IMG/VR virus record: IMGVR_UViG_3300021185_001174
Coordinates: 32,001-96,000 of that record
Strand: one strand, 5' to 3'
Length of the DNA stretch: 64,000 bases
DNA from: a virus
Below, piece after piece: positions 5,929 through 60,294 of this stretch. The notes under the pieces are model-generated. The model searched no databases and was not told the origin of the DNA. It was given only the letters and a program-made list of their open reading frames with translations. The position numbers and the translations under genes are program-made. Positions within the stretch are counted from its first letter, which is position 1. Every line of letters starts with the position of its first letter.

Positions 5929-5931
5929 TTA

Positions 5932-6786
5932 TTACGCCTCTTCTCTTGTATAAGCCTTAATATGAGTAAACGCACGAGTAGTTGTATTATATACACAACC
6001 CCAAATCATTAATTTTGGTTTAATACTTGAGTCACTAATATTATAGGGAAATGTGTACGAATTTTCAGTACACCATTCTTGCATTGCATCTGCATCAGCT
6101 AAGAAATATACATCAACATGTTCATTTACATTATTGGACTTATCATGTATTCTAGCATAGAAGTGATAATCACCCATAGGTAAGTTACTTGATACATTAG
6201 TATAAGTAACATCATCTACTCTTAACATTTCTTCAGCAGGAATAACAAACTTAGCCAATACTTCTTCTGTAGTCTTATCAAACTTTAAACCATACCATGG
6301 CATATATTGTTCATAACTTGCACCAAATGTTGTTTTAATTTCATCAGATGGTTCTTCAAAGTTATAAAAGGAAATACTATCATTAGTATAAGGTGGTCTC
6401 CGCGCTGGGTATTCTGCCACTGTGTTTTTAGGATGTGTTGTATATGAAGAAACCTCATTCGGCCAAGTAGCTTGTAATTTAGCAATTATTGCTTGACCTT
6501 GTGTTGTACCTATTGCATAATCTTCTCTTGCTAAACTTCCACCCATATAGGTTTTATCAAGTACGTTTGTTTCATTTACTTCCCTAGTAACATCAATCTG
6601 AGCTTTAATAGAACCAAACTGCTCATGATAAATTTTTAAAACTTTATTTTCTGATGCACTGGTATTTAAAGTAGAATCATTATTTACTTCAGAGGGACTT
6701 TCGATAGTAATATTATCTATTGAAAGTGTAGTAGTATAACCTGATGGTGATTCTAAATTTTCAGTGTGTGTATATGTAAATGCCAT
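5932..6786 (-). CDS. Hypothetical protein between two fibre-like genes
   Basis: 284 aa ORF tightly packed with neighbours. Confidence 0.6.
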   Translation of the reverse strand: MAFTYTHTENLESPSGYTTTLSIDNITIESPSEVNNDSTLNTSASENKVLKIYHEQFGSIKAQIDVTREVNETNVLDKTYMGGSLAREDYAIGTTQGQAIIAKLQATWPNEVSSYTTHPKNTVAEYPARRPPYTNDSISFYNFEEPSDEIKTTFGASYEQYMPWYGLKFDKTTEEVLAKFVIPAEEMLRVDDVTYTNVSSNLPMGDYHFYARIHDKSNNVNEHVDVYFLADADAMQEWCTENSYTFPYNISDSSIKPKLMIWGCVYNTTTRAFTHIKAYTREEA

Positions 6787-8171
6787 TATGATAGTCCTGT
6801 TATTGCTATTGTGTGTGTATCGTTATTACTAGGTGTAGTGTTAATACCAAAGTAATTAGAGTATGATTGATTTGTGTTCCAGGATAAAAATGCTCTAGTG
6901 TAACTACCACCGTCAGTAAAGGATAAAGTTGCACTACTAATTGGTAATGTTAAATCAGGAGTTCCTGAATTATCAGATTGGTCTAAATAAATCTCAACAG
7001 CCGTAAACCCTGTTTTGGTCCATGAAGTTCCGTGGTCAGGACTATGGTCTTCAAGCGATATACTAAAAGCAGAACTTACGGTTGACGAATTAGTACTGGA
7101 AAAATAAGCACTTTTTATCTGTATATCATTTGTATTTCTAGTAAGGCCGCCAAATGTAATAGGACCACTATTTGGAAATGTTGCATCACCTAGTGTATCA
7201 TCTATTCCTGCAAAATTGGTGTCGGTGACCATATAGCCACTATAATAGTAGGTAGTATAACCTGCAGTAAACCCCCAATAATCAGGCAATATAGTAGTAG
7301 TATGGGTAATTATCTGAGGTACAAAAGTCTTACTATAAAAATCAGAAAATTTAATCTCTGCAGGAGGACTGCCTTCTTCTGGGATTCCTGTTACATTACC
7401 TATAACATCACCATTTTTATAATAGTCGGATATAGCAACGTTAAGATTATCAGCACCGGTCATTTCTTCTGCAATACCCGTATTAAGTGTAGTAGTTGTA
7501 GTACCAGATATAATTTCTACATCATAACTAGTACCAGCACTAGGAGTACCTAGGGACGTTATCGCATTATATACAGTTCCAGAACTTCCATGCCATTCCC
7601 ACCAGCTATTTCCAGCTTCGTTTTGGTCATAGGCTAAATCAGTTCTATTTATTGTTACTGCAGTTCCACCATTAGTTGTAATTTTAATCTTTTCAAAAGT
7701 ATTATCACTATTAGTAACACTAGAGCCTGATAGCGCAAAACAAAAAACTCTATTGCTTGCATTGGGCGGAGGTGATGCATCGGGTAAGCCCCAAGTAAGT
7801 ATTTTTATTGTCCTAGAGATTAATCCAGCATCTGAATATGAAGTAGAACCTAGACTTCCGTATGCACTAGTGCTGGTAAATTTTCTAAATTCATTGGCTG
7901 CTAATGGAGCATTCATTGGCCATCTCTGATGAATATAACTACTAGAAAAGTTACTAGCCGCAGAGTTAAATCCATACATATCACCTTTCCAGACTTCGGT
8001 CGCTATATAGCTGCCATCTTCATTTTGTTCTACATTTTGTATCATTGACATTAACGCATCAAGACCAGTTGTCATAGTAGTATCGAGCAACTGTGTCTCT
8101 ACCGTAGTAGAAGGATTAGTATCATTTAATCCTTGTAATTTTATTTCACTTCCTGAGGCTACTAAGGTCAT
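6786..8171 (-). CDS. Virion fibre/receptor-binding-like protein; C-domain paralogous to 5227-5928
   Basis: EIKFSDFYSK module; shared PDY, ITFGG, GFTAxExYxDQSxxSGxP motifs. Confidence 0.6.
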   Translation of the reverse strand: MTLVASGSEIKLQGLNDTNPSTTVETQLLDTTMTTGLDALMSMIQNVEQNEDGSYIATEVWKGDMYGFNSAASNFSSSYIHQRWPMNAPLAANEFRKFTSTSAYGSLGSTSYSDAGLISRTIKILTWGLPDASPPPNASNRVFCFALSGSSVTNSDNTFEKIKITTNGGTAVTINRTDLAYDQNEAGNSWWEWHGSSGTVYNAITSLGTPSAGTSYDVEIISGTTTTTLNTGIAEEMTGADNLNVAISDYYKNGDVIGNVTGIPEEGSPPAEIKFSDFYSKTFVPQIITHTTTILPDYWGFTAGYTTYYYSGYMVTDTNFAGIDDTLGDATFPNSGPITFGGLTRNTNDIQIKSAYFSSTNSSTVSSAFSISLEDHSPDHGTSWTKTGFTAVEIYLDQSDNSGTPDLTLPISSATLSFTDGGSYTRAFLSWNTNQSYSNYFGINTTPSNNDTHTIAITGLS

Positions 8172-8434
8172 TTAATAATCTCCGTAATTAAATCTTCAAA
8201 CTGTTCTATCTTCTCTACTCTATTGGGCCAAAGAATATACTCTTTTTCTGGATTCTTCTTTAAATTGCTTAATAGGGGTAAGATACTATTATATAGTTTG
8301 TTTAATTTATCTTCTAGTTGTTGTACGTTAGCAGATGCTGTTGAAGCTTCAGTCTTTACACTTTGGACTGCTTCTAGTTCGTGTTCATCTACTGCTGTAA
8401 AGCCGAAGTCAAAATCTAATAAATCGTTGCTCAT
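8168..8434 (-). CDS. Conserved hypothetical protein (coiled coil)
   Basis: DFDFGFTAVDE and LKKNPEKEYILWPNR motifs recalled from marine T4-like phages. Confidence 0.65.
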   Translation of the reverse strand: MSNDLLDFDFGFTAVDEHELEAVQSVKTEASTASANVQQLEDKLNKLYNSILPLLSNLKKNPEKEYILWPNRVEKIEQFEDLITEIIK

Positions 8435-8436
8435 AT

Positions 8437-8607
8437 TTAATCCTCTATTAAACTATTTATAAGGTTTTTATCTTCTTTTCTGTGGTTTTGTTTCTTTTTA
8501 TTTGGTATAACCCTGTGGTTAAATGGCAGGTCTGTATCCCATAATACTTTATGGTATCTAGTTTTTATTTTCTTTGGCTTTTGAGGCGTTCGTATTTTCT
8601 TCGCCAT
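8437..8607 (-). CDS. Small basic protein, ArfA (ribosome rescue)-like
   Basis: VLWDTDLPFNHRVIPNKKKQNHRK resembles ArfA [24 protein letters not shown]; start refined using GGAG RBS. Confidence 0.35.
   Translation of the reverse strand: MAKKIRTPQKPKKIKTRYHKVLWDTDLPFNHRVIPNKKKQNHRKEDKNLINSLIED
8454..8461 (-). promoter_or_regulatory. Late promoter for fibre-like gene unit
   Basis: Exact TATAAATA ~20 nt upstream of the ATG at 8434. Confidence 0.7.
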
Positions 8608-8731
8608 CTTCATCTCCATGTTCAACTTTTTTATTTTTCTTACCAAAGATAGCATCATAGTTATCCAGATATTTTTTACTTGTTATCTTTGTTTGTATAC
8701 TGTCACCAGTTACATCATTCTTTGTTACCAA
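8558..8731 (-). CDS. Small hypothetical protein
   Basis: TTG start with GGAG RBS; KNDVTGDSIQTK...NYDAIFGKK motif. Confidence 0.55.
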   Translation of the reverse strand: MVTKNDVTGDSIQTKITSKKYLDNYDAIFGKKNKKVEHGDEDGEENTNASKAKENKN

Positions 8732-8901
8732 TTGTGTACTACTCCTGACATGATAAAGAAGCATGTTATAAAATTAACTAGTACTATTATAGTTCTAATC
8801 AGTGCAATAACATCTGCTTCTTTATTAGATTTACCTTCTTTTTCTCCAAGTGATTTGGCCCAAAGTCTCCAAGCCTTACTTAGTATTCCAAACAATTTCA
8901 A
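8725..8901 (-). CDS. Small membrane protein (not in track)
   Basis: TTG start; WRLWAKSLGEKEGKSNKEADVIALIRTIIVLVNFITCFFIMSGVVHNW, a motif recalled from marine T4-like phages. Confidence 0.7.
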   Translation of the reverse strand: MKLFGILSKAWRLWAKSLGEKEGKSNKEADVIALIRTIIVLVNFITCFFIMSGVVHNW

Positions 8902-9079
8902 TGCCTCGGCTAACTAATTCGTTTTGGCATTTCTGTTTAATCTTAGGCTTACCATTAGAACTATTGATATAATCAAATAATTCTTGCTTAGGGGTTGACT
9001 TCATATAGAAGTTTTCTGTTTTGTTTTTTCCCGTTTTTTTATCTCTTACAGTTTGAGATGGTTTAAATTTTATTGGCAT
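8876..9079 (-). CDS. Small basic hypothetical protein
   Basis: 67 aa ORF, tightly packed. Confidence 0.6.
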   Translation of the reverse strand: MPIKFKPSQTVRDKKTGKNKTENFYMKSTPKQELFDYINSSNGKPKIKQKCQNELVSRGIEIVWNTK

Positions 9080-9660
9080 TATATCTCCCCGACTATGTGT
9101 TTATATATATCTTTCCATTTCCAATACCTTGGAATGTTTCCTTCATAATAAGCATTATGTTCATGAGCCACAAGTATTGATTCAAGTCCGAATCTTTTAC
9201 CTACTTCAGCATTCTCTACTTTATCTTCTACCCAGAAACATTCTGTACCTTGATATTGTTTTAGTACTTCATCTTTATCAGCACCACATCCAAGATAGAT
9301 ATAATCATCAAATAATTCTTTTCCAAAAAGTAATTCTAAATTTTGAGTTCTTAATCTTTGAGCATACTTGTTATCACTTAAAGATGTAATGCAATGAAAT
9401 CTATAACCATGTAACATATTAAGTCTTTTCATGTAATAGACTGCATCTCTTAATGGTGGTAAGAAAGCAATTGCGGCAGACTCATTAAACTCTTCAACAC
9501 ATTTCTTACTAAACTCTCTTGTTAAGTTAAATCTTTTTGCAACATTGTACTCATCATACTTACTGGTAGGATATCCTTTATGGTTCATCCATTGTGTGAA
9601 TGAATATTCCCAGTCGCAGAGAACTCCATCACAATCTACTAAAATTATATTTTCTTTCAT
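9079..9660 (-). CDS. HAD-family 5'(3')-deoxyribonucleotidase-like protein
   Basis: ILVDCDGVL motif I and WVEDKVEN motif; start refined. Confidence 0.8.
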   Translation of the reverse strand: MKENIILVDCDGVLCDWEYSFTQWMNHKGYPTSKYDEYNVAKRFNLTREFSKKCVEEFNESAAIAFLPPLRDAVYYMKRLNMLHGYRFHCITSLSDNKYAQRLRTQNLELLFGKELFDDYIYLGCGADKDEVLKQYQGTECFWVEDKVENAEVGKRFGLESILVAHEHNAYYEGNIPRYWKWKDIYKHIVGEI

Positions 9661-9676
9661 TCTATCTCCTAACATC

Positions 9677-9895
9677 TTAATGAAAGACCCTTTCCTTGCC
9701 ATTAATAACAAGATGGTCTATATGTACGTTACCTCTTGGGTCCATGATTCCATGTTTTACTAACATTTCACATAGTCTATCCCAAGCATCATCTTCTTTA
9801 GATATAGCAAGTTCCACCATTTCTGGTAGTGGTAATGGAAGATAGACTTTACAGCCTTTCTTACTAACTAATCTTCCTACTATTTTATTCTTCAT
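9677..9895 (-). CDS. Hypothetical protein
   Basis: 72 aa ORF directly after an early promoter, GAGA RBS. Confidence 0.6.
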   Translation of the reverse strand: MKNKIVGRLVSKKGCKVYLPLPLPEMVELAISKEDDAWDRLCEMLVKHGIMDPRGNVHIDHLVINGKERVFH

Positions 9896-9917
9896 ATCTA
9901 TCTCTTTTTATACTAAT

Positions 9918-9946
9918 ATTATACTACACTTTCTAGTAAATGTAAA
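9918..9946 (-). promoter_or_regulatory. Sigma70 early promoter
   Basis: TTTACA-17-TATAAT with GTAG before -10. Confidence 0.85.
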
Positions 9947-9960
9947 GTGTTTTTTTAAAT

Positions 9961-10170
9961 TTATTTAAAGTATTTTATTAACATTTCAAGCTTGTCGTGA
10001 TATTCAGCCATTAACCCTAGTTCTTTTTCTAGTGTTTCCATTTGGTCTGAATGTTCACCAACAGATACTTGATTACTTAAGATGATTTCGGCATTCATTT
10101 TATGTTTTTCTGCCTGCGCTTCCATATACTTCATAGAAGTCGCTACCATTTGGTCTCTAAAGTTTTTCAT
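9961..10170 (-). CDS. Conserved hypothetical protein
   Basis: Start refined to MKNFRDQ; VSVGEHSDQMETLEKEL. Confidence 0.65.
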   Translation of the reverse strand: MKNFRDQMVATSMKYMEAQAEKHKMNAEIILSNQVSVGEHSDQMETLEKELGLMAEYHDKLEMLIKYFK

Positions 10171-10171
10171 A

Positions 10172-10864
10172 TTATCTCCCGAATACATTTTCCATGCGTT
10201 TTTCTTTTTGATACTGTTTAATAGTATCCCATAATTTATCAGTCCAGTTATCTCTGTGCTCGATAAAAACTTGTGGGTCCTCATTATCTACTGCAATCAT
10301 AATCACAAGTTGAGTAATTGGCATCCCTGTTCTTTCTTCCCACATGATTGCATACGCTGCACATTGTAAGAAGTAACCAGTAATCCATTCTTTCTTTTTA
10401 GGCTTACGTGATGTTTTATAATCAATGATAGAGTTTACCCCATTCCATACACCAACACAGTCTACTCTACCAGCTAGTTCTAAGTGTTGTGAATATAAAG
10501 GTGCCTCTTGTGAATAAACTTTATCTAGGTTATTATCTAGTATATGTTTTACATCTTGAAAGGATTGGATAATATGAGGCATATAACCTTCGGTATAGTT
10601 CGGGTCATTATCTACATACTTTTCAAGTATTGCGTGGACAGCTGTACCTCTACTTGAGGCAACTCTACTAATCTTGTTTGCCTCTTTTTCACCTACTCGC
10701 GCTCTCCACGCTTGTATTGCCTCTCTACTTAATATAGAAAGAACCGTGGTGACACTAGGGTATTGTTCGCCGTCCGGCGTCTTATATACTCTTCCTTTTC
10801 CTTCGGAAGTGGTCGCTGTTAAATCTTCATAACCTAAATCAATTGGTTCATGTATAAAGCTCAT
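10172..10864 (-). CDS. PD-(D/E)XK exonuclease
   Basis: YPSVTTVL, GTAVH, AGRVDC, IIDYKTS, YFLQCAAYA. Confidence 0.85.
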   Translation of the reverse strand: MSFIHEPIDLGYEDLTATTSEGKGRVYKTPDGEQYPSVTTVLSILSREAIQAWRARVGEKEANKISRVASSRGTAVHAILEKYVDNDPNYTEGYMPHIIQSFQDVKHILDNNLDKVYSQEAPLYSQHLELAGRVDCVGVWNGVNSIIDYKTSRKPKKKEWITGYFLQCAAYAIMWEERTGMPITQLVIMIAVDNEDPQVFIEHRDNWTDKLWDTIKQYQKEKRMENVFGR

Positions 10865-33887: not shown

Positions 33888-34544
33888 TTAAACTACATCA
33901 TCAACTGGGAAAATTTTATAGATAATATTACCAATTTCTTTTGCTATATCCATATGCTCTTTTTGAGTACCATTGGCACTTCTTAGTTCTATATAATGAA
34001 TCCAAGAGCGAAGGGTTCCATTAACGTACATACGAGACTTTGTTAATCCCTCAGGTAGTACAGCCCTGGCTTGTTCTTTGGCAATTCCTGCCTCGATAGC
34101 CCAATTATAAGCTTTTTGACATCTTTCTATAATAACTTCTTGATAAGATTCCCATATATAATTAATGGACTCATCAAGGTTTTCAATAGAATTCTGTCTG
34201 TTCTTTTTATCTTGCATTCTCGCTTCTCTTGTAACAAAACTTAAATCTTTTGTTGGGTCAGCATATCGCTGTGAGAATTCTTGGAAGGAGAAAGACCTAT
34301 GGCGAAGTATTTGTCTTGCAATGTCCCTAGTTGTATCTATCTCCATACATACACTTACCATCTCTAATGGGCTCCAGTGTTTGTGCTTAATTAAATACTT
34401 TACTAGTTTCTCTGAAGTTTCTTCATTGCTCTGATTACTAGGATTAGATACCCTAGCGCAGTAAGCGACCATCTGCAAGAGGTCGGGACTTAACTCGACC
34501 TCCGCAGGTGGCTGCGAATATGATATAAGTTTCACGTCAAACAT
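33888..34544 (-). CDS. thyX: Flavin-dependent thymidylate synthase
   Basis: HKHWSPLE, RHRSFSFQEFSQRY, EQARAVLP, NGTLRSWIHY. Confidence 0.96.
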   Translation of the reverse strand: MFDVKLISYSQPPAEVELSPDLLQMVAYCARVSNPSNQSNEETSEKLVKYLIKHKHWSPLEMVSVCMEIDTTRDIARQILRHRSFSFQEFSQRYADPTKDLSFVTREARMQDKKNRQNSIENLDESINYIWESYQEVIIERCQKAYNWAIEAGIAKEQARAVLPEGLTKSRMYVNGTLRSWIHYIELRSANGTQKEHMDIAKEIGNIIYKIFPVDDVV

Positions 34545-37805: not shown

Positions 37806-38218
37806 GTGTTTTCTTCAACTCTTTTTCTTAAATTAGATGTTGAAAATCTGTGGTCTCTTTTGTTAAAGTAAAAATCTATATCTCTTTGCTTACATAGTTC
37901 TCTACCAGTAAAGTCTTTATCCCTGTATTCTTCGCCCATTATCTTAACATCTATATGATACATTGCAAGGATATCTAGTAGCTCTTCTTCTGTATTATAT
38001 ACTAAAATTTCATCAACATATTTAATGGCGGCTAGTTGCGCTTGGCGTTCGACAATATTTTGAATGGGTTTGTTTTTCTCTGGTCTATCTACCGATGGGT
38101 CATTTTGTAATGCACATATTAAATAATCACATGCGGTCTTTGCTTCTCTTAACATTGCAACATGACCACTATGTAATAAGTCAAATGTGCTGCATGTAAA
38201 TCCTACTCTTTTCTTCAT
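37790..38218 (-). CDS. Glycerol-3-phosphate cytidylyltransferase (TagD)-like
   Basis: FTCSTFDLLHSGH (HIGH), ERQAQL...YVDEI, GEEY, RDHRFST. Confidence 0.85.
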   Translation of the reverse strand: MKKRVGFTCSTFDLLHSGHVAMLREAKTACDYLICALQNDPSVDRPEKNKPIQNIVERQAQLAAIKYVDEILVYNTEEELLDILAMYHIDVKIMGEEYRDKDFTGRELCKQRDIDFYFNKRDHRFSTSNLRKRVEENTLQSK

Positions 38219-38661
38219 ATTTGTTCCAATTCTATTTTACACTTTTCTAAAAAGGGTCTTCCATAACCCACGTTAGCTTTATAATCTTCTTTATAATATA
38301 CTTTTTTAATACCCGATTGGTGTATTAACTTAGCACAATCTATACAAGGCATGGCAGTACAGAAGATTTCGGCACCCTCTGTAGATTCATTTGACCTTGC
38401 AACTTTAGATATAGCATTTGCCTCTGCGTGGAGGACTTCGGGTTTTGTAGTGAGCTCATATACTGGAGTTCTATTTCCATAATCATGGATATCCTTAGTC
38501 TCACATACATTATCCCAACCAGTAGGCATTCCATTATATCCTATAGATATAATCCTATTATCCTTTACTATAATAGAACCTACTTTTTTTCTTTTGGCAT
38601 GACTTAAAGCCGCAAATGTCTCTGCGACTTCCATGAATGCTTTCTTAAATTTATTTTTCAA
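38215..38661 (-). CDS. cd: dCMP deaminase
   Basis: KVGSIIV, GYNG, HAEANAI, PCIDC; start uncertain (TTG 38661 chosen). Confidence 0.9.
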   Translation of the reverse strand: MKNKFKKAFMEVAETFAALSHAKRKKVGSIIVKDNRIISIGYNGMPTGWDNVCETKDIHDYGNRTPVYELTTKPEVLHAEANAISKVARSNESTEGAEIFCTAMPCIDCAKLIHQSGIKKVYYKEDYKANVGYGRPFLEKCKIELEQI

Positions 38662-39070
38662 CGTAAATAATGCCTTGCTCATTGAGAGCTTTACGGTTTG
38701 CCATATGGTGGTTTTCTGTTTCTTCTTTATTGCCACCATAGTATGGGACAGCATGATTGTTATTAATCATGGTTTGATTAACTGAAGTTTCTAATCCATC
38801 TATAAAGAGTTCACCTAAAATTCTACCGAACTTGCCTTTGTCGTGGGATACTAGTTGGATTTTCTTATCTTTTAAGATACTTTCTAAGAAGTATTTAGAT
38901 TGTTTACCATAAAACTTTTCTTCTAAGTCTCTGGTTCTGGATTCTGGTGTATCAATTGCCATCATTCTAACTCTTTGCTTTCTTAGCATAGTGCTGAAAC
39001 CTAAATCAATATCTACATCGACAGTATCTCCGTCAACTACTCTGGTTATATAAACTCTGTATCTATACAT
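38651..39070 (-). CDS. Thermonuclease (SNase)-like protein
   Basis: RVVDGDTV, RVRMMAIDTPES, GKFGRILG. Confidence 0.85.
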   Translation of the reverse strand: MYRYRVYITRVVDGDTVDVDIDLGFSTMLRKQRVRMMAIDTPESRTRDLEEKFYGKQSKYFLESILKDKKIQLVSHDKGKFGRILGELFIDGLETSVNQTMINNNHAVPYYGGNKEETENHHMANRKALNEQGIIYVEK

Positions 39071-43111: not shown

Positions 43112-43140
43112 ATTATACTACATTTTAATCTGATTGTAAA
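43112..43140 (-). promoter_or_regulatory. Sigma70 early promoter
   Basis: TTTACA-17-TATAAT. Confidence 0.85.
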
Positions 43141-44036
43141 GGGGTTTTTAAAATTAATTTTAAATTTTTATAGTCGGTGAAAAATCTTCGTTTGTGTTGT
43201 AACTTCCAACCCTTATGTGAACCTTCTACTAACTCAACAACTCTAAAGTTCTTAGGCCAGACCTTAACAAATCTCTCATAGAGTTTGCGTCTCTTCTCTT
43301 TACTTTCCCAGTGGTTCATATTACCACCTTTTTGAGTCGCAGTACCAGGAGCATCAAATAGGATATGAGAGAAAGAAATTGTACACCACTTGTTTTCTAA
43401 GGCTGTGAGTGTATAATGCCAGTCCTCTACACCTGATAGATTTTCTGGCCAAGTAACATCAGCTTCATTCTTAATGAGAACACAGCTGTATGCGAGTTGG
43501 TTTACTTTAACTGGATATCTTTTACTAAAAGCAAATGCTGGACTTGTAAGGCCTGATATGGCAACATTAGAGAATAGACCAATTGTCTTTTCTACCACGG
43601 CCAAGGCATTGATACCTTTAACCACAACATTCTTATCATTCATTCTGATTCTAAACTTTTTAATATCATCATCCATTTGCCAGTGATATGTATCACCTTG
43701 GGCTTTAGAGTATTCTTTGATAAAGTTTCTGACATATGAAATGCCTCTATCGTTAGCTTCAATATTAACTAATATATCTTTATCGTGATATTTGGAATAC
43801 TCTTCATAATCTTGAGGTTCAACAAACAACTTATATGGTATATTTTCTTCTAATAATGTTTTAGGAGTAAATGCACAATCTGCTCTTCCCTTACTTGGGA
43901 CATATATAGGATGAGATACATCTGTATAATTTTCATGTTCTGATATAAGGTCAGAAACATATGTTACTATATCAAAGTCAGCTTCATCACTAAATAAAGG
44001 ATTGTGCTCTACTATATATTTGTTTAAGTTTGTCAT
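43125..44036 (-). CDS. GT-A glycosyltransferase, TET-associated/GREB1-like (copy 1)
   Basis: IYVPSKGR, FVEPQDYEEY, GISYVRN, WQMDDDI (DxD), VEDW, KGGN. Confidence 0.8.
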   Translation of the reverse strand: MTNLNKYIVEHNPLFSDEADFDIVTYVSDLISEHENYTDVSHPIYVPSKGRADCAFTPKTLLEENIPYKLFVEPQDYEEYSKYHDKDILVNIEANDRGISYVRNFIKEYSKAQGDTYHWQMDDDIKKFRIRMNDKNVVVKGINALAVVEKTIGLFSNVAISGLTSPAFAFSKRYPVKVNQLAYSCVLIKNEADVTWPENLSGVEDWHYTLTALENKWCTISFSHILFDAPGTATQKGGNMNHWESKEKRRKLYERFVKVWPKNFRVVELVEGSHKGWKLQHKRRFFTDYKNLKLILKTPLQSD

Positions 44037-44395
44037 TATTCTACTAGAATATGTCCTTCGTCAATTACTTCGTCAACATCTGGGTTGCCATCAATTTGGT
44101 CTTCATGCATCCATCTAAGAAGCGAGTTCTTACTTTTGTCTGCAGGTGGATACCAAACACCTTTTGTTTTAGGTGTTACTGTTTGGCCAATAAGTTCTGC
44201 AAATGCCAATAGGTCTTCTTCATTACGGAATCTTACCTTAATACATTTCCATGCCTCATTCTGCTTCTGGTCAAACTCTGGCATTGAATCCCACTGATGT
44301 GGTGTCTCTGCCTCTTCTTCTCCTGATAATACAAATAGACTTTCACCTTCGTAATTGATTTGTCTATCTTTGGTTGAATTATTTTTACTTGCCAT
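44036..44395 (-). CDS. Small conserved partner of the glycosyltransferases
   Basis: WDSMPEF...IKVRFRNEEDLLAFAELIGQ...TKGVWYP; sandwiched between the two GT genes. Confidence 0.7.
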   Translation of the reverse strand: MASKNNSTKDRQINYEGESLFVLSGEEEAETPHQWDSMPEFDQKQNEAWKCIKVRFRNEEDLLAFAELIGQTVTPKTKGVWYPPADKSKNSLLRWMHEDQIDGNPDVDEVIDEGHILVE

Positions 44396-45294
44396 TATAC
44401 TGCCTCCTTCTTTAATCTGACTAGTTTAAGACCTTTATTGTCTGTTACCTTAGGTATATTTAGGTCTGGTTTGAGAGTTGGTTTTTCTTTTTGGAATATA
44501 GAGTAATCAATGTGGTGATGCCACCTACCCCACTTCCAAGTAACTTTAACACAATCTGGATGTTGTCGTCTTAATGATTCTGCAAACTCTCTTCTGTTAT
44601 CAAAATCATCATTACCTTTACGATTGCCTTGGTCACCTGTTTGGTCAATGTTATATAACTCTTCCGTATTACCACCTTTCATTGTCATAGTAGTAATCTT
44701 ACCACAATTAAAGTTGTTAAATAGGAAAGTATGATAACCAGCCTTCATAATTCTTAGAGATAAATCTGTATCTTCATTGAATCGGCCTCTCCACGCAAAC
44801 TCTGGATAGATATCATTCGCCAATAAGATACATGAATATACCCTAGTGTTATGATAATATGGAGGTCGCTTGGTAGTCGCAGGTAGGAAATAACTATAGT
44901 TCATACCAGACATTTTAACATTTTCATATCGGTCGGTAAACTCTTCACACGCAGTGAAACAAGTACCATCTGTTACCTTAATCTTAGCATTCTTATGGAG
45001 TCTATACATATGTTGTATATTATCATCAAGAATCCAATGTCTTTCAGCACCAGTAGAACATGCATGTTCCCAAACAAAGTTACGGACTGGTATAGAACCT
45101 AGACCTAGATTAGTAAATGGAGTAACTAGAATATTGGCTGGGTCAATGACTGCCGCATAATCGTTATACTCTTGAGGTTCAATTACTATAGTATAAGGTG
45201 TGCCGTTTGCTTCTAGTGTCTTAACTGTTAGTCTAGTGTCAGCACGACCCTTTGATATAATATAGATTGGATATTTTGGTTGATTACCTGCCAT
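44395..45294 (-). CDS. GT-A glycosyltransferase, TET-associated/GREB1-like (copy 2)
   Basis: IYIISKGR, VIEPQEYNDY, GSIPVRN, WILDDNI, FNEDTDL, KGGN. Confidence 0.8.
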   Translation of the reverse strand: MAGNQPKYPIYIISKGRADTRLTVKTLEANGTPYTIVIEPQEYNDYAAVIDPANILVTPFTNLGLGSIPVRNFVWEHACSTGAERHWILDDNIQHMYRLHKNAKIKVTDGTCFTACEEFTDRYENVKMSGMNYSYFLPATTKRPPYYHNTRVYSCILLANDIYPEFAWRGRFNEDTDLSLRIMKAGYHTFLFNNFNCGKITTMTMKGGNTEELYNIDQTGDQGNRKGNDDFDNRREFAESLRRQHPDCVKVTWKWGRWHHHIDYSIFQKEKPTLKPDLNIPKVTDNKGLKLVRLKKEAV

Positions 45295-45602
45295 TATTCC
45301 TCCTTGATAAAGATACCATCTACCATTTTACCTTTTCGGTCTTTGATATCATTATACGCCACTTCTAAACATCTATCGATAGTGAGATTATTTCTCATAG
45401 CAATATTAATTAATACTACCATACAATCTCCAATATCATCTGCGACATCTTTACCCTTACATACATTATCAGAAAGTTCACCGACTTCCTGAATCAGTTT
45501 ACATACTTGGTCCTTATCTGTGGCTCCATCAATAAGATTTCTGTCTTGATGCCACTGGCCAATTTTCTGGACCAATTCACCTGTTCGAGCACTTGTATTC
45601 AT
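45294..45602 (-). CDS. mazG: MazG-like nucleotide pyrophosphohydrolase
   Basis: KLIQEVGEL, DDIGDCMVVLI, CLEVAYNDIKDRKGKMVDGIFIKE. Confidence 0.88.
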   Translation of the reverse strand: MNTSARTGELVQKIGQWHQDRNLIDGATDKDQVCKLIQEVGELSDNVCKGKDVADDIGDCMVVLINIAMRNNLTIDRCLEVAYNDIKDRKGKMVDGIFIKEE

Positions 45603-45889
45603 TAGACTATGATATCCGTGTTTGGTGTAATTAAAGATGATTTAGGCTTAAGTTGTGCCTGAATCTGTTGTACTAATTCATCTAATGGGTCAGCAATAAA
45701 CAGTACAAACTGCTTGTTGATTTTAAGACCATCTTTAGCATTCTTAGTATATGGCATGAATGGCATAAATGCAATCTTTCCTTCTCCGCCTGGGATTAGG
45801 ACAAAGCCATTTTTAACGATAACAGAGTTATCACTTTCAGTGACATCTCCAATGATTTCTTCTCCTGATGAGATTCTTACTAGTTTCAT
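45602..45889 (-). CDS. Conserved small beta-barrel (Sm-like) hypothetical protein
   Basis: LVRISSGEEII...FMPFMPY. Confidence 0.7.
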   Translation of the reverse strand: MKLVRISSGEEIIGDVTESDNSVIVKNGFVLIPGGEGKIAFMPFMPYTKNAKDGLKINKQFVLFIADPLDELVQQIQAQLKPKSSLITPNTDIIV

Positions 45890-45918
45890 ATTATTTCCTT
45901 AGTGTGTTTATATGTTAT

Positions 45919-45947
45919 ATTATACTATACTTTTAACCAAAAGTAAA
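45919..45947 (-). promoter_or_regulatory. Sigma70 early promoter for the MazG-GT unit
   Basis: TTTACT-17-TATAAT. Confidence 0.8.
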
Positions 45948-45952
45948 GTGTT

Positions 45953-48460
45953 TTATCCAAAAAAGTCCTCTAAACTTGAAGTTTCTTCGGTATTCCATCC
46001 AATCGCCTTGAAGATAGGTTCTATAGGGTCAAGGAATGTTTTTTGAAATTGTGTCTCGTAATCTATATAGGAATCCAATTCAAACTCTTTTGGGAGATAC
46101 TGCATGAAGCCGATTACATTTTCTTTGATAGGATTGGGTGACTTGAGATATATAAATTTAATCTTCTCGCCATTCTTAATTGGCTGATACTTTTTGGTCA
46201 GACTTTTATTCTTTAACATTCTGTTATGGAGTAGAGCGGCACGAACATGCATTGGACAACCCTTCTTGTAAATGGTCTGCATATTTGAATACTCTGTAAC
46301 ATTACTAACGCCACGAGGGAATGCAATATCATGGGCTGGTAATGTTTGGAAGTAATCCTTGAATTGTAAGATAGCCTGTTGATTATCTTTCTCGGAACCC
46401 TTCATAATTACTTTGAACAATTCTTTAAGAGCATCTCGGCAAGGGGCAGGAGTTGAAGATTTAATAGCCTCGATACCCATGATTTTGAGTTTAGGTTCTT
46501 TGTATCGAACACCCTCGTTATCATGCACGTTTAGGATATATCTTTTCTTGGCTGTCCATATGGCACGGTCTGCAATGGCCTCTCTTTTCATAACCATACG
46601 ATTATCGATGCCACCCATATGGTCAAACAGTTCTTGATATGCCTGACTAAGGACTGGTTCTAGTTTTTCACTAGCAACTTTATCAAGAAAGTCAACCGGA
46701 TTGGATGGGTTAACCTGTTCGACCAATGGGCCAAGATTAACATAGAGCGAGTCTGTGTCAATGGCAATGATATAATCGGTATCTGTGTTCATGACTTTAT
46801 TTAGGTATTTATTTAAAGCGACTTCTGCCCAACGGATAGTAAGCTGACCAGATAATGTAATTGCCTCTGCAATACGTTGGTCAAAGAAACGGAAGTACTT
46901 GTTACCCATAGCGCCATAGAGTGAGTTAAGTAGAATTTTAATAGCCATCTGTTGATTTTCTGCCACGGATATTTTACGTTCTATATCATAGAGTTTTTGT
47001 TTATCACCAGGAACTACCTTCTGTAATTCTTTCTGAGCCTCAATCATCTGTTTCTTGATTATGACACGTTCACTATATAAATCATCTACTAGGGTAGGCA
47101 TCATGCCTTTCTTATCACTACTAAAGCATTGACCATTACCGCCTACAGCATGACCATCTCGGTCAAAGGTATACCCATCAAGTATCTTATCGATATTGAT
47201 AGGAAGGACTTGGCCGTTTAAGATAGTTTCGGGCGACATATTATATTGCATAATGATTGACGGATAGAGAGAGTTAAGGTCAAACGATACCACGTGTTCG
47301 TGTAAACCAACTACTGGGTCTTTTACATATCCGCCAGGGTAATTAGTCTTAATCTTATTCTCGGAGAATGGCATTGCAATCTTTCGGTCATTGAGATATC
47401 TGTAAATAATAGTATCCCAGATTGCAGTAACTCCGAACGTGTCCGAATAGTTAACGCCACCTTTATATGCCATAGTCAACATAAGAGTGATAAGGCCCAT
47501 CTTGTCTTCTAGTCTGTCAACCAACTCAACATCTTTGATATTATAATCAATAAACTTTTGGTGGTCATTTTTGTATAGACTATGGAGTGAGCCGTATTCT
47601 TCATATGACAGTTTCTTCTCGCCTAGAATAACGTGAGCAATATGATTAAGAGCATAAGATTCTTGGGCTGTGTAAGTATACTTCTGAAATAGTTCCATGT
47701 AATCTGCATGACCAATACCCTTGATATCAAAGATAGTCTGTTCTCTGTTCATTTTACGAGCAGTTCTTCTGTCTACCATACCCCAAGGAGAAAGCCTTTT
47801 AGGAGCATCATCACCAAGCATTCTGATAATACGATTTACAATGTATGGTATATCAAAGTACATAGTATTCCAGCCAGTAATAACATCAGGACATTGACTA
47901 GGTAGTGACCAGTGATTAATAAAATTATGTAATAGTGTAAGTTCTGATTCACATTTTACATAGACTACGCGGTGTGATTTCATATAAGATTGGTCTGTAT
48001 CGAAATCTCCAAGACCCCACACATAATAAGTATTGTCAATATTGTTCTTCATCGCAATGGATATGATAGGGTGTTCTGCTTGTTCTGGTTCTGGGAAACC
48101 ATCATCGGAAGCAACCTCGATATCAATAGAGGTTACGTTGATTAGGTTACGATTAAATTCTATCTCGCCAGGGAACTGGTCGTTGATAAACTGGGATATG
48201 TATCTGTCATTGCCATAGATTTCTCTACCAGCAGTATGCTTATTGATATCCATCCAGTCTTTAGCCTCACGCATAGAATCGAACTTGATAGGTGCACATG
48301 GATTACCATCGAGCGAAGTCCAATCTCCCTGCGGAGTATTTACGAATAAGGTGGGTTTGTATTTGATGCGCTTTGCAACTTTAGTGCCATTTTCATAGCC
48401 ACGATAAAGTAACATATTCGCATATCGAGTTACATTTGTATAAAAATTCATATAGTCCAA
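45953..48460 (-). CDS. 43: Family B DNA polymerase (gp43)
   Basis: DIEV (ExoI), GWN..YFDIPY, FDLNSLYPS, KILLNSLYG, IDTDS. Confidence 0.98.
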   Translation of the reverse strand: MDYMNFYTNVTRYANMLLYRGYENGTKVAKRIKYKPTLFVNTPQGDWTSLDGNPCAPIKFDSMREAKDWMDINKHTAGREIYGNDRYISQFINDQFPGEIEFNRNLINVTSIDIEVASDDGFPEPEQAEHPIISIAMKNNIDNTYYVWGLGDFDTDQSYMKSHRVVYVKCESELTLLHNFINHWSLPSQCPDVITGWNTMYFDIPYIVNRIIRMLGDDAPKRLSPWGMVDRRTARKMNREQTIFDIKGIGHADYMELFQKYTYTAQESYALNHIAHVILGEKKLSYEEYGSLHSLYKNDHQKFIDYNIKDVELVDRLEDKMGLITLMLTMAYKGGVNYSDTFGVTAIWDTIIYRYLNDRKIAMPFSENKIKTNYPGGYVKDPVVGLHEHVVSFDLNSLYPSIIMQYNMSPETILNGQVLPINIDKILDGYTFDRDGHAVGGNGQCFSSDKKGMMPTLVDDLYSERVIIKKQMIEAQKELQKVVPGDKQKLYDIERKISVAENQQMAIKILLNSLYGAMGNKYFRFFDQRIAEAITLSGQLTIRWAEVALNKYLNKVMNTDTDYIIAIDTDSLYVNLGPLVEQVNPSNPVDFLDKVASEKLEPVLSQAYQELFDHMGGIDNRMVMKREAIADRAIWTAKKRYILNVHDNEGVRYKEPKLKIMGIEAIKSSTPAPCRDALKELFKVIMKGSEKDNQQAILQFKDYFQTLPAHDIAFPRGVSNVTEYSNMQTIYKKGCPMHVRAALLHNRMLKNKSLTKKYQPIKNGEKIKFIYLKSPNPIKENVIGFMQYLPKEFELDSYIDYETQFQKTFLDPIEPIFKAIGWNTEETSSLEDFFG

Positions 48461-52715: not shown

Positions 52716-53009
52716 TTACTTTGCATTATTTCTATCATGCTCATATAAAGCAAGTAATCCATAATGTAGAACCTTCATCAGGTCTTTGCGCCACTCCTGC
52801 GGAGTATCACCCTTCTTGCCATAACGTGCATTATACTTATCTACATTTCCTAAGAAGAATCCTAGGCCATGTCCTCGGTCGATGATAACTTCACTTGACT
52901 GAAGTCCTCCTTGACCATAATGTGCATTATAGGTTGAATCTATGTAATCATGGAGCTCTTCAATAAGAGCCCCTTCATTAAATTTGTAATCTGGTTTAGA
53001 CTGTTTCAT
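52716..53009 (-). CDS. DUF3310-like protein
   Basis: TYNAHY, GFFLGNVDKYNARYGKK, DLMKVLHY; start refined. Confidence 0.75.
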   Translation of the reverse strand: MKQSKPDYKFNEGALIEELHDYIDSTYNAHYGQGGLQSSEVIIDRGHGLGFFLGNVDKYNARYGKKGDTPQEWRKDLMKVLHYGLLALYEHDRNNAK

Positions 53010-54129
53010 ATGTGTCCTCGGTTGTAGTTTCATCTTCGAAGGTAACTCCTGAATCCACTTTAGTGTATAAGTCCAAGAAGGCAGCCTTAGTATCATCATC
53101 AAATCTTGCGATACATAATTCTATGGCTTTCATCTTGTTATCAAAGATAGAAAAAGTTTGAACTATGTGACAGAGCCTTCTGGTTGAAATTACCTCGTCA
53201 ACTCCATCATCATAGAATGTCTTTCTGATAATGTCAGCCCAAGATACTAGTTTAGTCGCGAACTCTACATCTACTTTGCCGAACTTTTCCATATGTTTAG
53301 CAACGATTTTATTCTCCACTGATTGACTTGGGAAAGCCTGGTCTATGGCTACTGTGAATCTCTCCAAGAAAGCATCATCAATGATTGAAGCGGCTGTAAA
53401 TCTGCCATCTTCTGAGCCTTTACCTTTGGTATTGGCTGTTGCAATGACATTGAAACCTGGACTTGGTTCTACTACTTCACCAGTCTTTTTGACTAGTACT
53501 GGTTTTCCTTCTAGGATACCTTGTAGACACATAATCTTGTTAGTCGCTCTATCGACCTCATCCAGAAGAAGAATAGCTCCTCTCTCCATAGCCTTGAGAA
53601 CCGGCCCTTTAGAGAATACTGTTTCTCCATTGATAAGTCTGAATCCACCTAGTAGGTCGTCCTCATCCGTCTCAGGATTAATTTGAACTCTGATGAACTC
53701 TCTACCTAGTTTAGCAGCCGCTTGTTCAACCATGAAAGTCTTACCGTTACCTGATAAACCAGATACATAGACTGGGTAGAACATTTCGGACTTGAGGATT
53801 TTAACCACATCCGAAAAGGCACCCCATGGGACAAAAGTTGGGTCTTTTTTAGCAAAGTTTGATTCTTCATTTACTATTGATTGCATCTTAACCACGTTTG
53901 AGAAACCAGTAATTGGTTCTTTATTAACTGGGACAATCATAGCTGATAAGTCATAAACACCAGGTTTAACTCTTATCTTTGCATCGATTAAGTCCCAAAA
54001 GTCTTTTCTTGAATAACCCAATGAGTCAGCTGTATCACTGATTTGGGCTCTCTTGAACTCTGTCTGGTCTGGGAACCTCTGAGCCAGGGTTTCAAGGATT
54101 ATTTGAGTTGATTTTTTCATTGTATTCAT
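52996..54129 (-). CDS. CobS/MoxR-like AAA+ ATPase
   Basis: GLSGNGKT, TDEDDLLGG, LLLDEVD, ATANTKGKG, AFLERF, STRRL. Confidence 0.9.
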   Translation of the reverse strand: MNTMKKSTQIILETLAQRFPDQTEFKRAQISDTADSLGYSRKDFWDLIDAKIRVKPGVYDLSAMIVPVNKEPITGFSNVVKMQSIVNEESNFAKKDPTFVPWGAFSDVVKILKSEMFYPVYVSGLSGNGKTFMVEQAAAKLGREFIRVQINPETDEDDLLGGFRLINGETVFSKGPVLKAMERGAILLLDEVDRATNKIMCLQGILEGKPVLVKKTGEVVEPSPGFNVIATANTKGKGSEDGRFTAASIIDDAFLERFTVAIDQAFPSQSVENKIVAKHMEKFGKVDVEFATKLVSWADIIRKTFYDDGVDEVISTRRLCHIVQTFSIFDNKMKAIELCIARFDDDTKAAFLDLYTKVDSGVTFEDETTTEDTYETV

Positions 54130-54259: not shown

Positions 54260-56416
54260 TCAAGCCACTGCCCCTCCGAATTTAGTAAGAAGCACCTTGT
54301 TGGTCTTTTTGGACTTAGAGTACTTTTTAAAAGCATTTCTAATCTGAGCATCTGAGGCTTCTGTTTGAACTTCGAAATCCTCTTCTTCGGTATTAAGGTT
54401 TTTACCACCTTTGACCATGTAGTAAGTATCATATCCGAAAACATTTGATACTTCAACACACTTGTTTTTATTATACTCTTTGTTCTTTTCCTTTCTGTAT
54501 TCTTCACTACCTGTTCTAGCTGATTCTGCCCAGTATGCATTATTGATTCTATACTTCCATTCACTATTATCATCGGCCATGAAGAATCCTAGATTGTTAG
54601 TTTTATACTGTTTCTTAATATTGTTAAGTAGGACAGTTGTTAGACCAGTTGCTGAGGTTAATCCAGATGTGATAGACTTACCTTGAACAATTAATCTTAT
54701 TTCATTAGTCTTGTTTCTGTAATCTCTATTACCATGAACTTGGATTCTATTAGCATCTCCATCGGTGAAAGTTAAGAAGTTCATTTTTTCAATGTTGTTC
54801 TTAGCTCTGAATCTTTTAATGATATCATGCATAACAACTAGAGCTTGATTAAGAGGTGTTGAACCCCAGTTCTCTGAATGAGCTTTAGGTATGTCTCTTT
54901 GTTCTGTAGTCCTTAAGTATAAGAACTGAGTCGCCTTTATAAAGTCAGCTTTCTTCATATCTGAAGATACTAGGAGTGGCATTCTTAGGTCATCCATATC
55001 TAGGTCACCTGTTTGATATTGTCTAGCTTGAGACTCTCCGTACCAACCGCCGGACGTGAATGCGTATACTTCATAAGGGATGTTGACTGCCTTACAGAAC
55101 ATAACAGTATGAAGGATTTGGTCCATTACATATTTCATTGACGTTGACATTGACCCAGAATAGTCTACCAACATAACCATGCCGTGTGATTTGGCATTTG
55201 GTAACTTAGTAGCTTTGAGAAAGATATCATCGTTTGTCTTGTAAGACCATAACTTGTTTACGTTGATGTTTCCAGTCTTAGCTTCAGTAGCCCTAGACCA
55301 TTGTGTCGCCGCTTTTTTCATTTCGAATTCTCTAACGGCCGGTTGAACATTCTTTTTAAGTTGTTTCATATATGAAGCGTAACCAGTTGAAATAGTTTCT
55401 CTCCAAGATTGATTACCCCATGAACTATCCTTGTAATTTTCTTCCCATCTTTTTATTTCTGTTTCTCTCTCTTTAGAAAGTTCTTTGAAATCTACTATGG
55501 ATGTTTCGATATTGTCTGCAGAGGTTTGACTGATGATGATAGGCTGATTACCATTTCTATCTGTTTCTATTAGTTCTTTTTCTTTTGACCTATAGATACT
55601 ATCGGTAATAGAAACATCAGAACCAGCTGTGTGTACAGGTTCTTTAGCCGTTACTGTTTCAGTGTCGTCTGACTCTTCACCCTCTTCTGATTCCTCAGAT
55701 GATTGATTACCTGACTTACTTTGAGTTGACTCGTCGTCTGACTCTTCTTTCTCATAATCATCATGTCCTGACGGCATATCTTCTTGATTGTTATTCTCTT
55801 CTGACTCTTGGTTTTCTGAATCTTCTGGTTCAGGTTCTGGCTGTTGAATTAGCTCTGGTGTATTGTCTTGAGTAAACTTTAGAATGTCTTTGACTAACTG
55901 AACAACTTCATCAAATGTTTGAGTAGTTTTAGCTCTAGTTAGGTAAACCATTTCTTCTGAATTGAATGGTACTTCTATAAGTGAACCGAGTTTGGTCTTA
56001 AGATTAATCTTATCAATAAGTTTGACTTGGTCATAATCTACATCGTCAAGTGGTCCGAAGAATTCTCTCTCCAATAACTTCTTGTAACCTTTATTAAAAG
56101 AGTTGACAAGCCCTGGATATCTTGATTGGATTTTTCTCTCAATCCTAGCATCTTCTATCACATTGATATAAGTTCTTGGACATCCTTCTAACTTCTCTGG
56201 ACTATCATGCCAACCTTCATATGGGGTTTCTATTGCATGTCCAACCTCATGACCAATTAGAAGGTCATAAACATCTTTGCCCATATCTTTCCACAATGGA
56301 AGACCTAGGGTTCTGTTCTTGATATCAAACCAGGCTGTATTGAAGTTACCATGTCTAATGGTAATGTTCTCTTTAGCCAAGAGTTTTGGTAGGAGGGATT
56401 TTTCATAATTCATCAT
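54260..56416 (-). CDS. Zincin-motif plus vWA protein (CobT-like partner of the AAA ATPase)
   Basis: HEVGH, NVIEDARIE, acidic linker, VDYSGSMS (MIDAS), STPL, TDGD. Confidence 0.85.
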   Translation of the reverse strand: MMNYEKSLLPKLLAKENITIRHGNFNTAWFDIKNRTLGLPLWKDMGKDVYDLLIGHEVGHAIETPYEGWHDSPEKLEGCPRTYINVIEDARIERKIQSRYPGLVNSFNKGYKKLLEREFFGPLDDVDYDQVKLIDKINLKTKLGSLIEVPFNSEEMVYLTRAKTTQTFDEVVQLVKDILKFTQDNTPELIQQPEPEPEDSENQESEENNNQEDMPSGHDDYEKEESDDESTQSKSGNQSSEESEEGEESDDTETVTAKEPVHTAGSDVSITDSIYRSKEKELIETDRNGNQPIIISQTSADNIETSIVDFKELSKERETEIKRWEENYKDSSWGNQSWRETISTGYASYMKQLKKNVQPAVREFEMKKAATQWSRATEAKTGNINVNKLWSYKTNDDIFLKATKLPNAKSHGMVMLVDYSGSMSTSMKYVMDQILHTVMFCKAVNIPYEVYAFTSGGWYGESQARQYQTGDLDMDDLRMPLLVSSDMKKADFIKATQFLYLRTTEQRDIPKAHSENWGSTPLNQALVVMHDIIKRFRAKNNIEKMNFLTFTDGDANRIQVHGNRDYRNKTNEIRLIVQGKSITSGLTSATGLTTVLLNNIKKQYKTNNLGFFMADDNSEWKYRINNAYWAESARTGSEEYRKEKNKEYNKNKCVEVSNVFGYDTYYMVKGGKNLNTEEEDFEVQTEASDAQIRNAFKKYSKSKKTNKVLLTKFGGAVA

Positions 56417-59730: not shown

Positions 59731-60294
59731 TTATAACATAAAGAGTTCTAGTTTCTCTTTAGCCTTCTCCTCTTTTGCGAATTTTTTAACTGCTTTATCT
59801 TTCTCTTTTACTGTAGAAATACGTTGTCTTAGTGTATCAACATAGTTCATAGTTTCGGCTGCTCCTGCATCGTCCATACCCATAGATACAAAATCATCAA
59901 TACCCATCTTTTCAATAAACTTGAATTTAATGTCTTGTTGTTTCTTCTCTTTGGTTATTCTACGGATAAATGCATAGTAACATATCTGAGTAAAGTAAGA
60001 GAATGCATTTGGATTACCAGTTCTTGTTGCTGTCTCTATTCTATAATTTCCTATAGCTCTTAGGCAGTTCTCTACAGCATCCATTACCATTTCTTCTCGG
60101 TAAGTATATCTTACAAAGTTTGGTCTATGAGATAGGCCCTCTGCAATCTTGATAAAACACTTAGCGATATAGTCTGGAACCGTTGGTGCATCGACGCCCT
60201 TTTCTTTATGCATATTACTGTCCTTAACATATTCTACTACAGCTAGTGAGAATTCCTTGTTATTGACATAATGTGGCTTTTGTTTAGGTTTCAT
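59731..60294 (-). CDS. 55: Late sigma factor (gp55)
   Basis: HYVNNKEF, IAEGLSHRPNFVRYTYREEM, NAFSYFTQICYYAFIRRI. Confidence 0.96.
   Translation of the reverse strand: MKPKQKPHYVNNKEFSLAVVEYVKDSNMHKEKGVDAPTVPDYIAKCFIKIAEGLSHRPNFVRYTYREEMVMDAVENCLRAIGNYRIETATRTGNPNAFSYFTQICYYAFIRRITKEKKQQDIKFKFIEKMGIDDFVSMGMDDAGAAETMNYVDTLRQRISTVKEKDKAVKKFAKEEKAKEKLELFML

Follow-up and report, generated by a model that had tools for sequence, protein, structure and literature searches.

The TAGT family of glycosyltransferases (GTs; Pfam PF20691) includes, according to PMC13216743, a second glucosyltransferase of phages T2 and T6, the beta-glucosyl-HMC-alpha-glucosyltransferase (HMC, hydroxymethylcytosine), and the same paper records a solitary TAGT in 288 of 753 GT-bearing phages. 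In that paper and in 10.1101/2023.12.21.572611, the acceptor of every TAGT-type DNA GT characterised is 5-hydroxymethylcytosine (5hmC), 5-hydroxymethyluracil (5hmU) or a sugar already placed on one of them. The latter also describes phage enzymes of the GT-A fold, associated with 5mYOX, that glycosylate 5hmC with varied sugars and for which TarP was the top reported PDB match; about 65% of the mined GT contigs were without a neighbouring base-modifying enzyme and were set aside as less obviously DNA-related. In a different setting, ParB-type partner proteins activate cognate phage thymine dioxygenases (5mYOX176/ParB176; PMC13229309). Here, a cassette with two TAGTs was analysed in a 64,000-nucleotide stretch (the window; bases 32001-96000 of the 120,810-base IMG/VR virus contig IMGVR_UViG_3300021185_001174, CheckV completeness 67%), where the genes for GT1 and GT2 flank the gene for a protein of 119 residues, p119, downstream of the DNA polymerase gene gp43. 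The cassette is real and conserved, and consists of a partnered TAGT (GT1 with p119) plus a swappable second TAGT. On balance, we consider it probable that it is a partnered-TAGT DNA-glycosylation system, its acceptor being unexplained.

The locus resembles each of the closest described systems in part. With the T2/T6 TAGT it shares the Pfam family and the slot between gp43 and uvsX, and the second-sugar role of that enzyme is a model for GT2; the sequence similarity to the window GTs is only remote (pairwise E 0.026 and 0.12). T6 couples its TAGT to gp42 and needs an alpha-GT, whereas the window contig has no gp42 (no PF00303 match). The T6 TAGT (279 aa) lacks a fused p119 domain, and none of the T-even records yielded a homologue of p119. 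The gp42 and gp56-type dCTPase of the T-even glucosyl-5hmC pathway were not found here, as PF00303 was not matched and the MazG-like protein of the operon has no dCTPase match in the PDB. The GT-A enzymes associated with 5mYOX/TET (PMC8256090; 10.1101/2023.12.21.572611) are alike in the GT-A fold, the R..DD(D)..ED motifs and the TarP match, and show sequential GTs and neighbouring sugar enzymes as the window does; they act on 5hmC made by a C5-methylase and TET, whereas neither was found in the window contig. The 5mYOX176/ParB176 pair likewise joins a DNA-modifying enzyme to an adjacent cognate partner of the ParB_N class, a domain carried by relatives of p119, so that these ParB-activated dioxygenases are the closest mechanistic precedent for p119; the enzyme there is a dioxygenase instead of a GT, and the partner in the window appears to have lost ParB_N. 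Arabinosyl-5-hydroxycytosine of RB69 and DLP3 (PMC13326640) is also a multi-GT DNA glycan of T4-like phages with dedicated sugar-nucleotide genes, but it is made by GT-B enzymes, a 5-hydroxy-dCMP (5hodCMP) synthase homologous to thymidylate synthase (TS) and an arabinose-5-phosphate pathway, and the window contig has no TS homologue.

Two TAGT paralogues

Both GTs lie above the PF20691 gathering cut-off of 27.5 bits (GT1, E 2.4e-43, 148.9 bits; GT2, E 4.2e-24, 86.1 bits), and phrog_842 was matched as well by the TAGTs of the window in a PHROGs search. They are paralogues with 34% identity (E 7e-28). The alignment of 35 homologues contains 22 invariant columns, including S14, K15, R17, E39, R71, H86, W87, D90, D91, E174, D175, G207, G208 and N209, and all 22 are kept by GT1 and GT2, so both enzymes look catalytically intact. 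The original prediction of two paralogous GT-A enzymes of the TAGT/GREB1-like type is borne out by these results, the motifs on which it relied (SKGR, EPQ, RN, W..DD, ED, GGN) being among the invariant columns. The name TAGT reportedly comes from Iyer et al. 2013. GT1 is 91-93% identical in close relatives and, in the tree, clusters with the TAGTs of cultured phages such as PTm1, 65 and Kuja, which are fused to the partner. The GT-A fold was assessed on a model of P0136, a naturally fused homologue 55% identical to GT1; P0136 is predicted to consist of two p119-like units and a GT-A domain, and the best PDB matches of the model by Foldseek were COLGALT1, POMGNT1, TarP and GnT-I.

p119, the partner of GT1

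p119 aligns to the N-terminal extensions found in two fused TAGTs, that of Tenacibaculum phage PTm1 (471 aa) and that of Aeromonas phage 65 (398 aa). A full HMMER search with p119 returned 1856 representative clusters, mostly stand-alone proteins of 85-120 aa; among the remaining clusters some are tandem repeats, some precede a TAGT in the same chain, and many make up the C-terminal part of proteins of 200-280 aa. A p119-family open reading frame (ORF) was present in three arrangements in 33 of the 44 IMG/VR loci (loci retrieved through GT1 and designated by L numbers), directly downstream of the GT in the clade of the window phage and directly upstream in other loci. Where GT2 is absent (L013, L014, L016 and L030), p119 still stands right after GT1, which identifies it as the partner of GT1. 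The predicted position of a conserved 119 aa protein between the GTs was therefore correct, and a partner shared by both GTs was not upheld. The same finding led to rejection of the idea that p119 is a detached N-terminal part of GT2.

ParB_N (PF02195) was detected at E <= 0.01 in 14 of 47 of the longer partners encoded upstream, ParB motifs can be seen in their consensus, and a profile of the longer p119-family partners matches Noc/ParB/Spo0J N-domains at about E 1e-12. Since the nearly invariant residues of the alignment fall within the p119 segment, the element constantly coupled to TAGT seems to be p119, with ParB_N as an accessory. A p119-family gene or domain adjoins or is fused to the TAGT, and the locus is accordingly classed with the ParB-partnered TAGT modules; the partner in the window would be the C-terminal domain only, with ParB_N lost and the gene placed downstream of the GT. 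The AlphaFold2 model of p119 alone has a beta-alpha-beta core (predicted local distance difference test, 85-97), for which no PDB match was obtained by Foldseek or VIA-align. No Pfam family was assigned to p119 (matches to DUF6982 and UPF3 were marginal), its ESM Atlas matches were viral hypothetical proteins only, and the available sections of PMC13216743 and 10.1101/2023.12.21.572611 hold no description of the domain or of its ParB_N fusions.

GT2 as a variable component

Compared with L011 and L008, nucleotide identity is roughly 80-95% in the flanks and only about 55% over precisely the length of GT2, rising again in the gene that follows; this drop is seen against contigs in which the flanking genes are 90-98% identical. 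GT2 is missing in contigs of the L013 type, which belong to another sub-lineage; a GT-B gene occupies the slot after p119 in L017, and in L045 a DXD-type GT separates the partner genes from the TAGT. Second-position TAGTs form a long-branch clade of their own in the tree. As judged from sequence comparison, GT2 is an optional, swappable and fast-changing add-on, and its variability would fit a role in adding a second or an alternative sugar under diversifying selection. The earlier suggestion of a two-step or two-sugar modification is kept in part: a second sugar added by GT2 is plausible, and GT2 is nevertheless dispensable and exchangeable.

Genomic position and transcription

The gp43 product is at most 51% identical to those of cultured phages, the nearest being phage C48C1 (Kyanoviridae) and T4-like cyanophages; the source is therefore an uncultured T4-like myovirus (window GC content, about 35%). 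Its lineage appears common, since the primase-like gene of the lineage has more than 2900 relatives in databases, several of them from marine (Tara) samples. The order on the minus strand is gp43, p95, the MazG-like gene, GT1, p119, GT2, the primase-like gene p308, UDP-glucose 6-dehydrogenase (Ugd), a short-chain dehydrogenase/reductase (SDR) and a SleB-type cell-wall hydrolase, followed by the dCMP deaminase gene cd, a cytidylyltransferase gene, uvsX and gp41. The cassette is thus located in the gp43-uvsX interval, the position of gt in T-even phages; the T6 order is gp43, imm, gp42, TAGT, uvsX. In C48C1 (L058), a Dam-type D12 N6-adenine DNA methylase is encoded at 9510-10394, in the gap between gp43 and the primase gene. 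With gp42 and the TAGT in T6 and the D12 methylase in C48C1, the slot repeatedly hosts DNA-modification genes, and the gap between gp43 and the primase gene is a hot spot of their exchange.

TAATG overlaps occur at all four junctions (p95/MazG, MazG/GT1, GT1/p119 and p119/GT2), and GGAGG stands ahead of p119. Candidate sigma-70-like promoters fall exactly in three intergenic gaps (Table 1), of which the one overlapping the end of GT2 may start the next unit, with the primase-like gene and Ugd. The late motif TATAAATA was looked for, and none was found within the cassette. The overlaps and the candidate site after gp43 agree with the original description of MazG, GT, partner and GT as one coupled early unit. 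Taken together, the predicted variant in the window is a ParB-less module with two TAGTs that lies among the early genes of a T4-like phage.

What the cassette modifies

That DNA is the substrate, what p119 does and in which order the GTs act are all inferred. The slot, the early-type promoters and the ParB_N link are the main contextual support for DNA. In the proposed mechanism, the cassette genes would be transcribed early from the sigma-70-like promoter. GT1, a presumably soluble GT-A enzyme, would act with p119 as the initiator; by analogy with the ParB-activated dioxygenases, p119 would probably form a dimer or bind to GT1, and either activate it or aim it at DNA. GT2 would then extend or vary the glycan as an additional TAGT, and its exchange or loss between near-identical phages would be as expected for an arms race with host nucleases.

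A number of observations weigh against this proposal. No match to PF00303 (TS-like hydroxymethylase) or PF12851 (TET/JBP) was found in the window or in the whole contig, which agrees with the earlier statements that the window has no such enzyme and that the acceptor base is unexplained. The C5-methylase family PF00145 and the 2-oxoglutarate-Fe oxygenase families PF13640 and PF13759 also gave no match in the 120 kb contig, in which several ORFs, including those at 5227-9711, 54260-56416 and 59731-60294 of the window, carry no annotation and which has the completeness given above. PF00303 was matched in none of 44 related contigs and PF12851 in none of the 17 searched, the same seven contigs of at least 90% completeness being included in both sets, and the PF12851 searches had no positive control. 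As no acceptor-making family was found, the known acceptors of the family would not be made by known routes. ParB_N was found neither in p119 of the window nor anywhere in the contig. Small phages carry the module within packaging and head genes, either flanked by portal and head-morphogenesis genes or immediately ahead of terminase. GREB1, a member of the same Pfam family, O-GlcNAcylates a protein, estrogen receptor alpha (ER-alpha; PMC7968844), and the best fold matches listed above are protein and polyol glycosyltransferases. The predicted glycosylation of DNA bases is supported by family and slot, and is qualified by the protein substrate of GREB1 and by carriers without acceptor-making enzymes.

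These points would suit a protein acceptor of virion, replication or host origin, with p119 as an adaptor or even as the substrate: besides GREB1 and the fold matches, the missing acceptor-base pathway and the position of the small-phage modules are then expected. We regard this as unlikely, because the window genes form an early sigma-70-type unit that is surrounded by replication genes and has no late promoter, the same slot carries DNA-modifying genes in T6 and C48C1, and the partners carry ParB_N, the fold that activates phage DNA dioxygenases (PMC13229309). Ordinary glycosylation of a hydroxymethyl-pyrimidine would place the hydroxymethylase or dioxygenase in the third of the genome that the contig lacks, or make it too divergent for Pfam. 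The incomplete contig and the uncontrolled PF12851 search are in keeping with this, as are the acceptors of the characterised TAGT-type DNA GTs. A TS-like gene is also present in six of the seven cultured module-bearing genomes searched (PTm1, 65, Kuja, POP12, henriette and GD1), with a second, weak TS-like ORF in PTm1; these genes could be hydroxymethylases. The contig does, however, hold nucleotide-metabolism genes (nrdA, nrdB, thyX and cd, along with ligase and RNase H), and with ThyX and dCMP deaminase present and no ThyA-type enzyme in 120 kb, canonical dTMP synthesis is expected, barring an unusual ThyX product. No C5-methylase was found to feed a TET enzyme, and the seven relatives of at least 90% completeness gave no TS-like gene. 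Nor did Vibrio phage 1.076.O, a siphovirus of 48 kb that encodes a fused TAGT between its portal and head-morphogenesis genes and in which PF12851 was not matched either. Conventional hydroxymethyl-pyrimidine glycosylation is accordingly judged distinctly unlikely.

Modification of a host envelope glycan or polyol polymer, comparable to that of wall teichoic acid by TarP and serving superinfection exclusion, with donors from Ugd, the SDR and the cytidylyltransferase, appears improbable. TarP is among the best fold matches; Ugd, the SDR and a TagD-like cytidylyltransferase are encoded nearby, and relatives have a phosphomannomutase. C48C1 keeps sugar genes without a TAGT, which implies a role of their own for these genes and at the same time uncouples them from the GTs. 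Small phages carry the module without sugar-nucleotide genes nearby, and the ParB_N link of the partner and the DNA-modification slot favour DNA. A broader version of the DNA-glycosylation proposal is that TAGTs partnered by p119 or ParB are widespread, virus-specific DNA glycosyltransferases that need no hydroxymethyl-pyrimidine and place sugars on a canonical base, on another position in DNA or on a new acceptor, the partner targeting or activating the enzyme and GT2-type enzymes building variable glycans; this is unlikely, and is put forward tentatively.

Should DNA be the target, the window contig and its seven near-complete relatives would represent a route to glycosylated DNA with an acceptor beyond the families searched. 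This would bear on evasion of restriction and CRISPR, on sequencing bias in viromes and on the enzyme toolbox for DNA labelling, and the swappable GT2 would illustrate on a small scale how glycans diversify under pressure from the host. If the broader version is true, marine T4-like phages, which are abundant, would have a new chemistry of DNA modification. The module is carried by a number of cultured phages, among them Aeromonas phages 65, Aeh1 and phiAS5, Tenacibaculum phage PTm1, Vibrio phages Kuja, henriette 12B8 and 1.076.O, and Pectobacterium phage POP12, so the matter could feasibly be settled at the bench, and Vibrio phage Kuja is a good cultured system for asking whether the TAGT class uses the 5hmU deoxynucleoside (5hmdU).

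Kuja (L053, NC_048827.1, Ackermannviridae) has two tandem TAGTs of 452 and 446 aa at 5587-8275, which are recent duplicates with N-terminal extensions of the length of a fused partner, a few kb from the single TS-like gene of the phage. The second TS-like ORF of PTm1 (L006, 123231-123866; 37 bits) contains one in-frame TAA and occurs besides an apparently split td; it is possibly a divergent hydroxymethylase or a pseudogene.

Other operon genes and neighbours

Table 1. Positions of the cassette genes, candidate promoters and neighbouring genes in the window.
Feature	Position	Strand	Evidence
gp43 (DNA polymerase)	45953-48460	minus	ORF
p95, first gene of the operon, phrog_527	45602-45889	minus	PHROGs E 1.2e-16
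MazG-like all-alpha nucleoside triphosphate (NTP) pyrophosphohydrolase, 102 aa	45294-45602	minus	phrog_1992, phrog_715; PF03819 below cut-off
GT1, TAGT-family GT-A glycosyltransferase, 299 aa	44395-45294	minus	PF20691, phrog_842
p119, stand-alone beta-alpha-beta TAGT partner domain, 119 aa	44036-44395	minus	Homology to fused TAGTs and ParB_N proteins
GT2, divergent TAGT paralogue, 303 aa	43125-44036	minus	PF20691
Ugd, UDP-glucose 6-dehydrogenase, 395 aa	40992-42179	minus	Profile matches
Extended-SDR nucleoside diphosphate (NDP)-sugar epimerase/dehydratase, 283 aa	40081-40932	minus	Profile matches
Sigma-70-like promoter candidate TTTACT-17-TATAAT, gp43/p95 gap	45947-45919	minus	10/12 consensus matches
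Sigma-70-like promoter candidate TTTACA-17-TATAAT, overlaps GT2 end	43140-43112	minus	11/12 consensus matches
Third sigma-70-like site, intergenic gap	40985-40957	minus	Consensus match
ThyX	33888-34544	minus	155 bits
dCMP deaminase (cd)	38215-38754	minus	
Cytidylyltransferase-like protein, 142 aa	37790-38218	minus	
MoxR/CbbQ-type AAA+ ATPase	52996-54129	minus	
718 aa protein	54260-56416	minus	

The MazG identity given in the original prediction is clear in PHROGs (E 1e-34 to 7e-38 for the two families in Table 1) and weak in Pfam (18.3 bits for PF03819). Its place in a hypermodification cassette was not sustained: the protein is a generic phage NTP pyrophosphatase, 1631 phage records contain a homologue, those of Staphylococcus, Streptococcus and Pseudomonas phages among them, and the family occurs in phages with ordinary DNA. 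Among close relatives the gene is absent in L014, L016 and L017 and replaced by a PRA-PH type in L020, L023-L025 and L028. A reading of the MazG-like protein as a dCTPase that marks hypermodification was rejected on these grounds and on the missing dCTPase match; the gene shares the transcript and is probably generic. The product of p95 has no Pfam or NCBIfam match and varies far more than the genes around it (in L008, 63% identity against 93% for the flanking genes), and its membership in the system is uncertain. The 308 aa product of p308 was rejected as a pathway member, being a primase-like replication protein that is annotated as DNA primase in C48C1 and weakly matches BT4734-like_N.

Phage C48C1 keeps an epimerase gene and Ugd at the same place without any TAGT, so a link of Ugd and the SDR to the GTs is not required. 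In L019 and L024, genes distantly resembling the SDR and Ugd (about 25-31% identity) are found next to GT-p119. The pair was considered as proof of a donor derived from UDP-glucuronic acid, a proposal weakened by C48C1 and by the ambiguous specificity of the SDR. Ugd is a neighbour and possibly a donor supplier for the GTs, and the link of the SDR to them is uncertain. ThyX and dCMP deaminase supply thymidylate. The 142 aa cytidylyltransferase-like protein is nearest to TagD glycerol-3-phosphate and ethanolamine-phosphate cytidylyltransferases, is 84-89% conserved in relatives beside sugar genes, and could make a CDP- or ADP-activated donor. A eukaryotic-type phosphomannomutase gene (PF03332) separates gp43 from the cassette in L023 and L025 and is located downstream of it in L024; an FkbM-type methyltransferase is encoded upstream of the GT in L019, L026 and L027. 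Between gp45 and gp46, the AAA+ ATPase is followed by the 718 aa protein, for which no Pfam match was found; the two may be a CobS/CobT-like pair, and such pairs occur in marine myoviruses.

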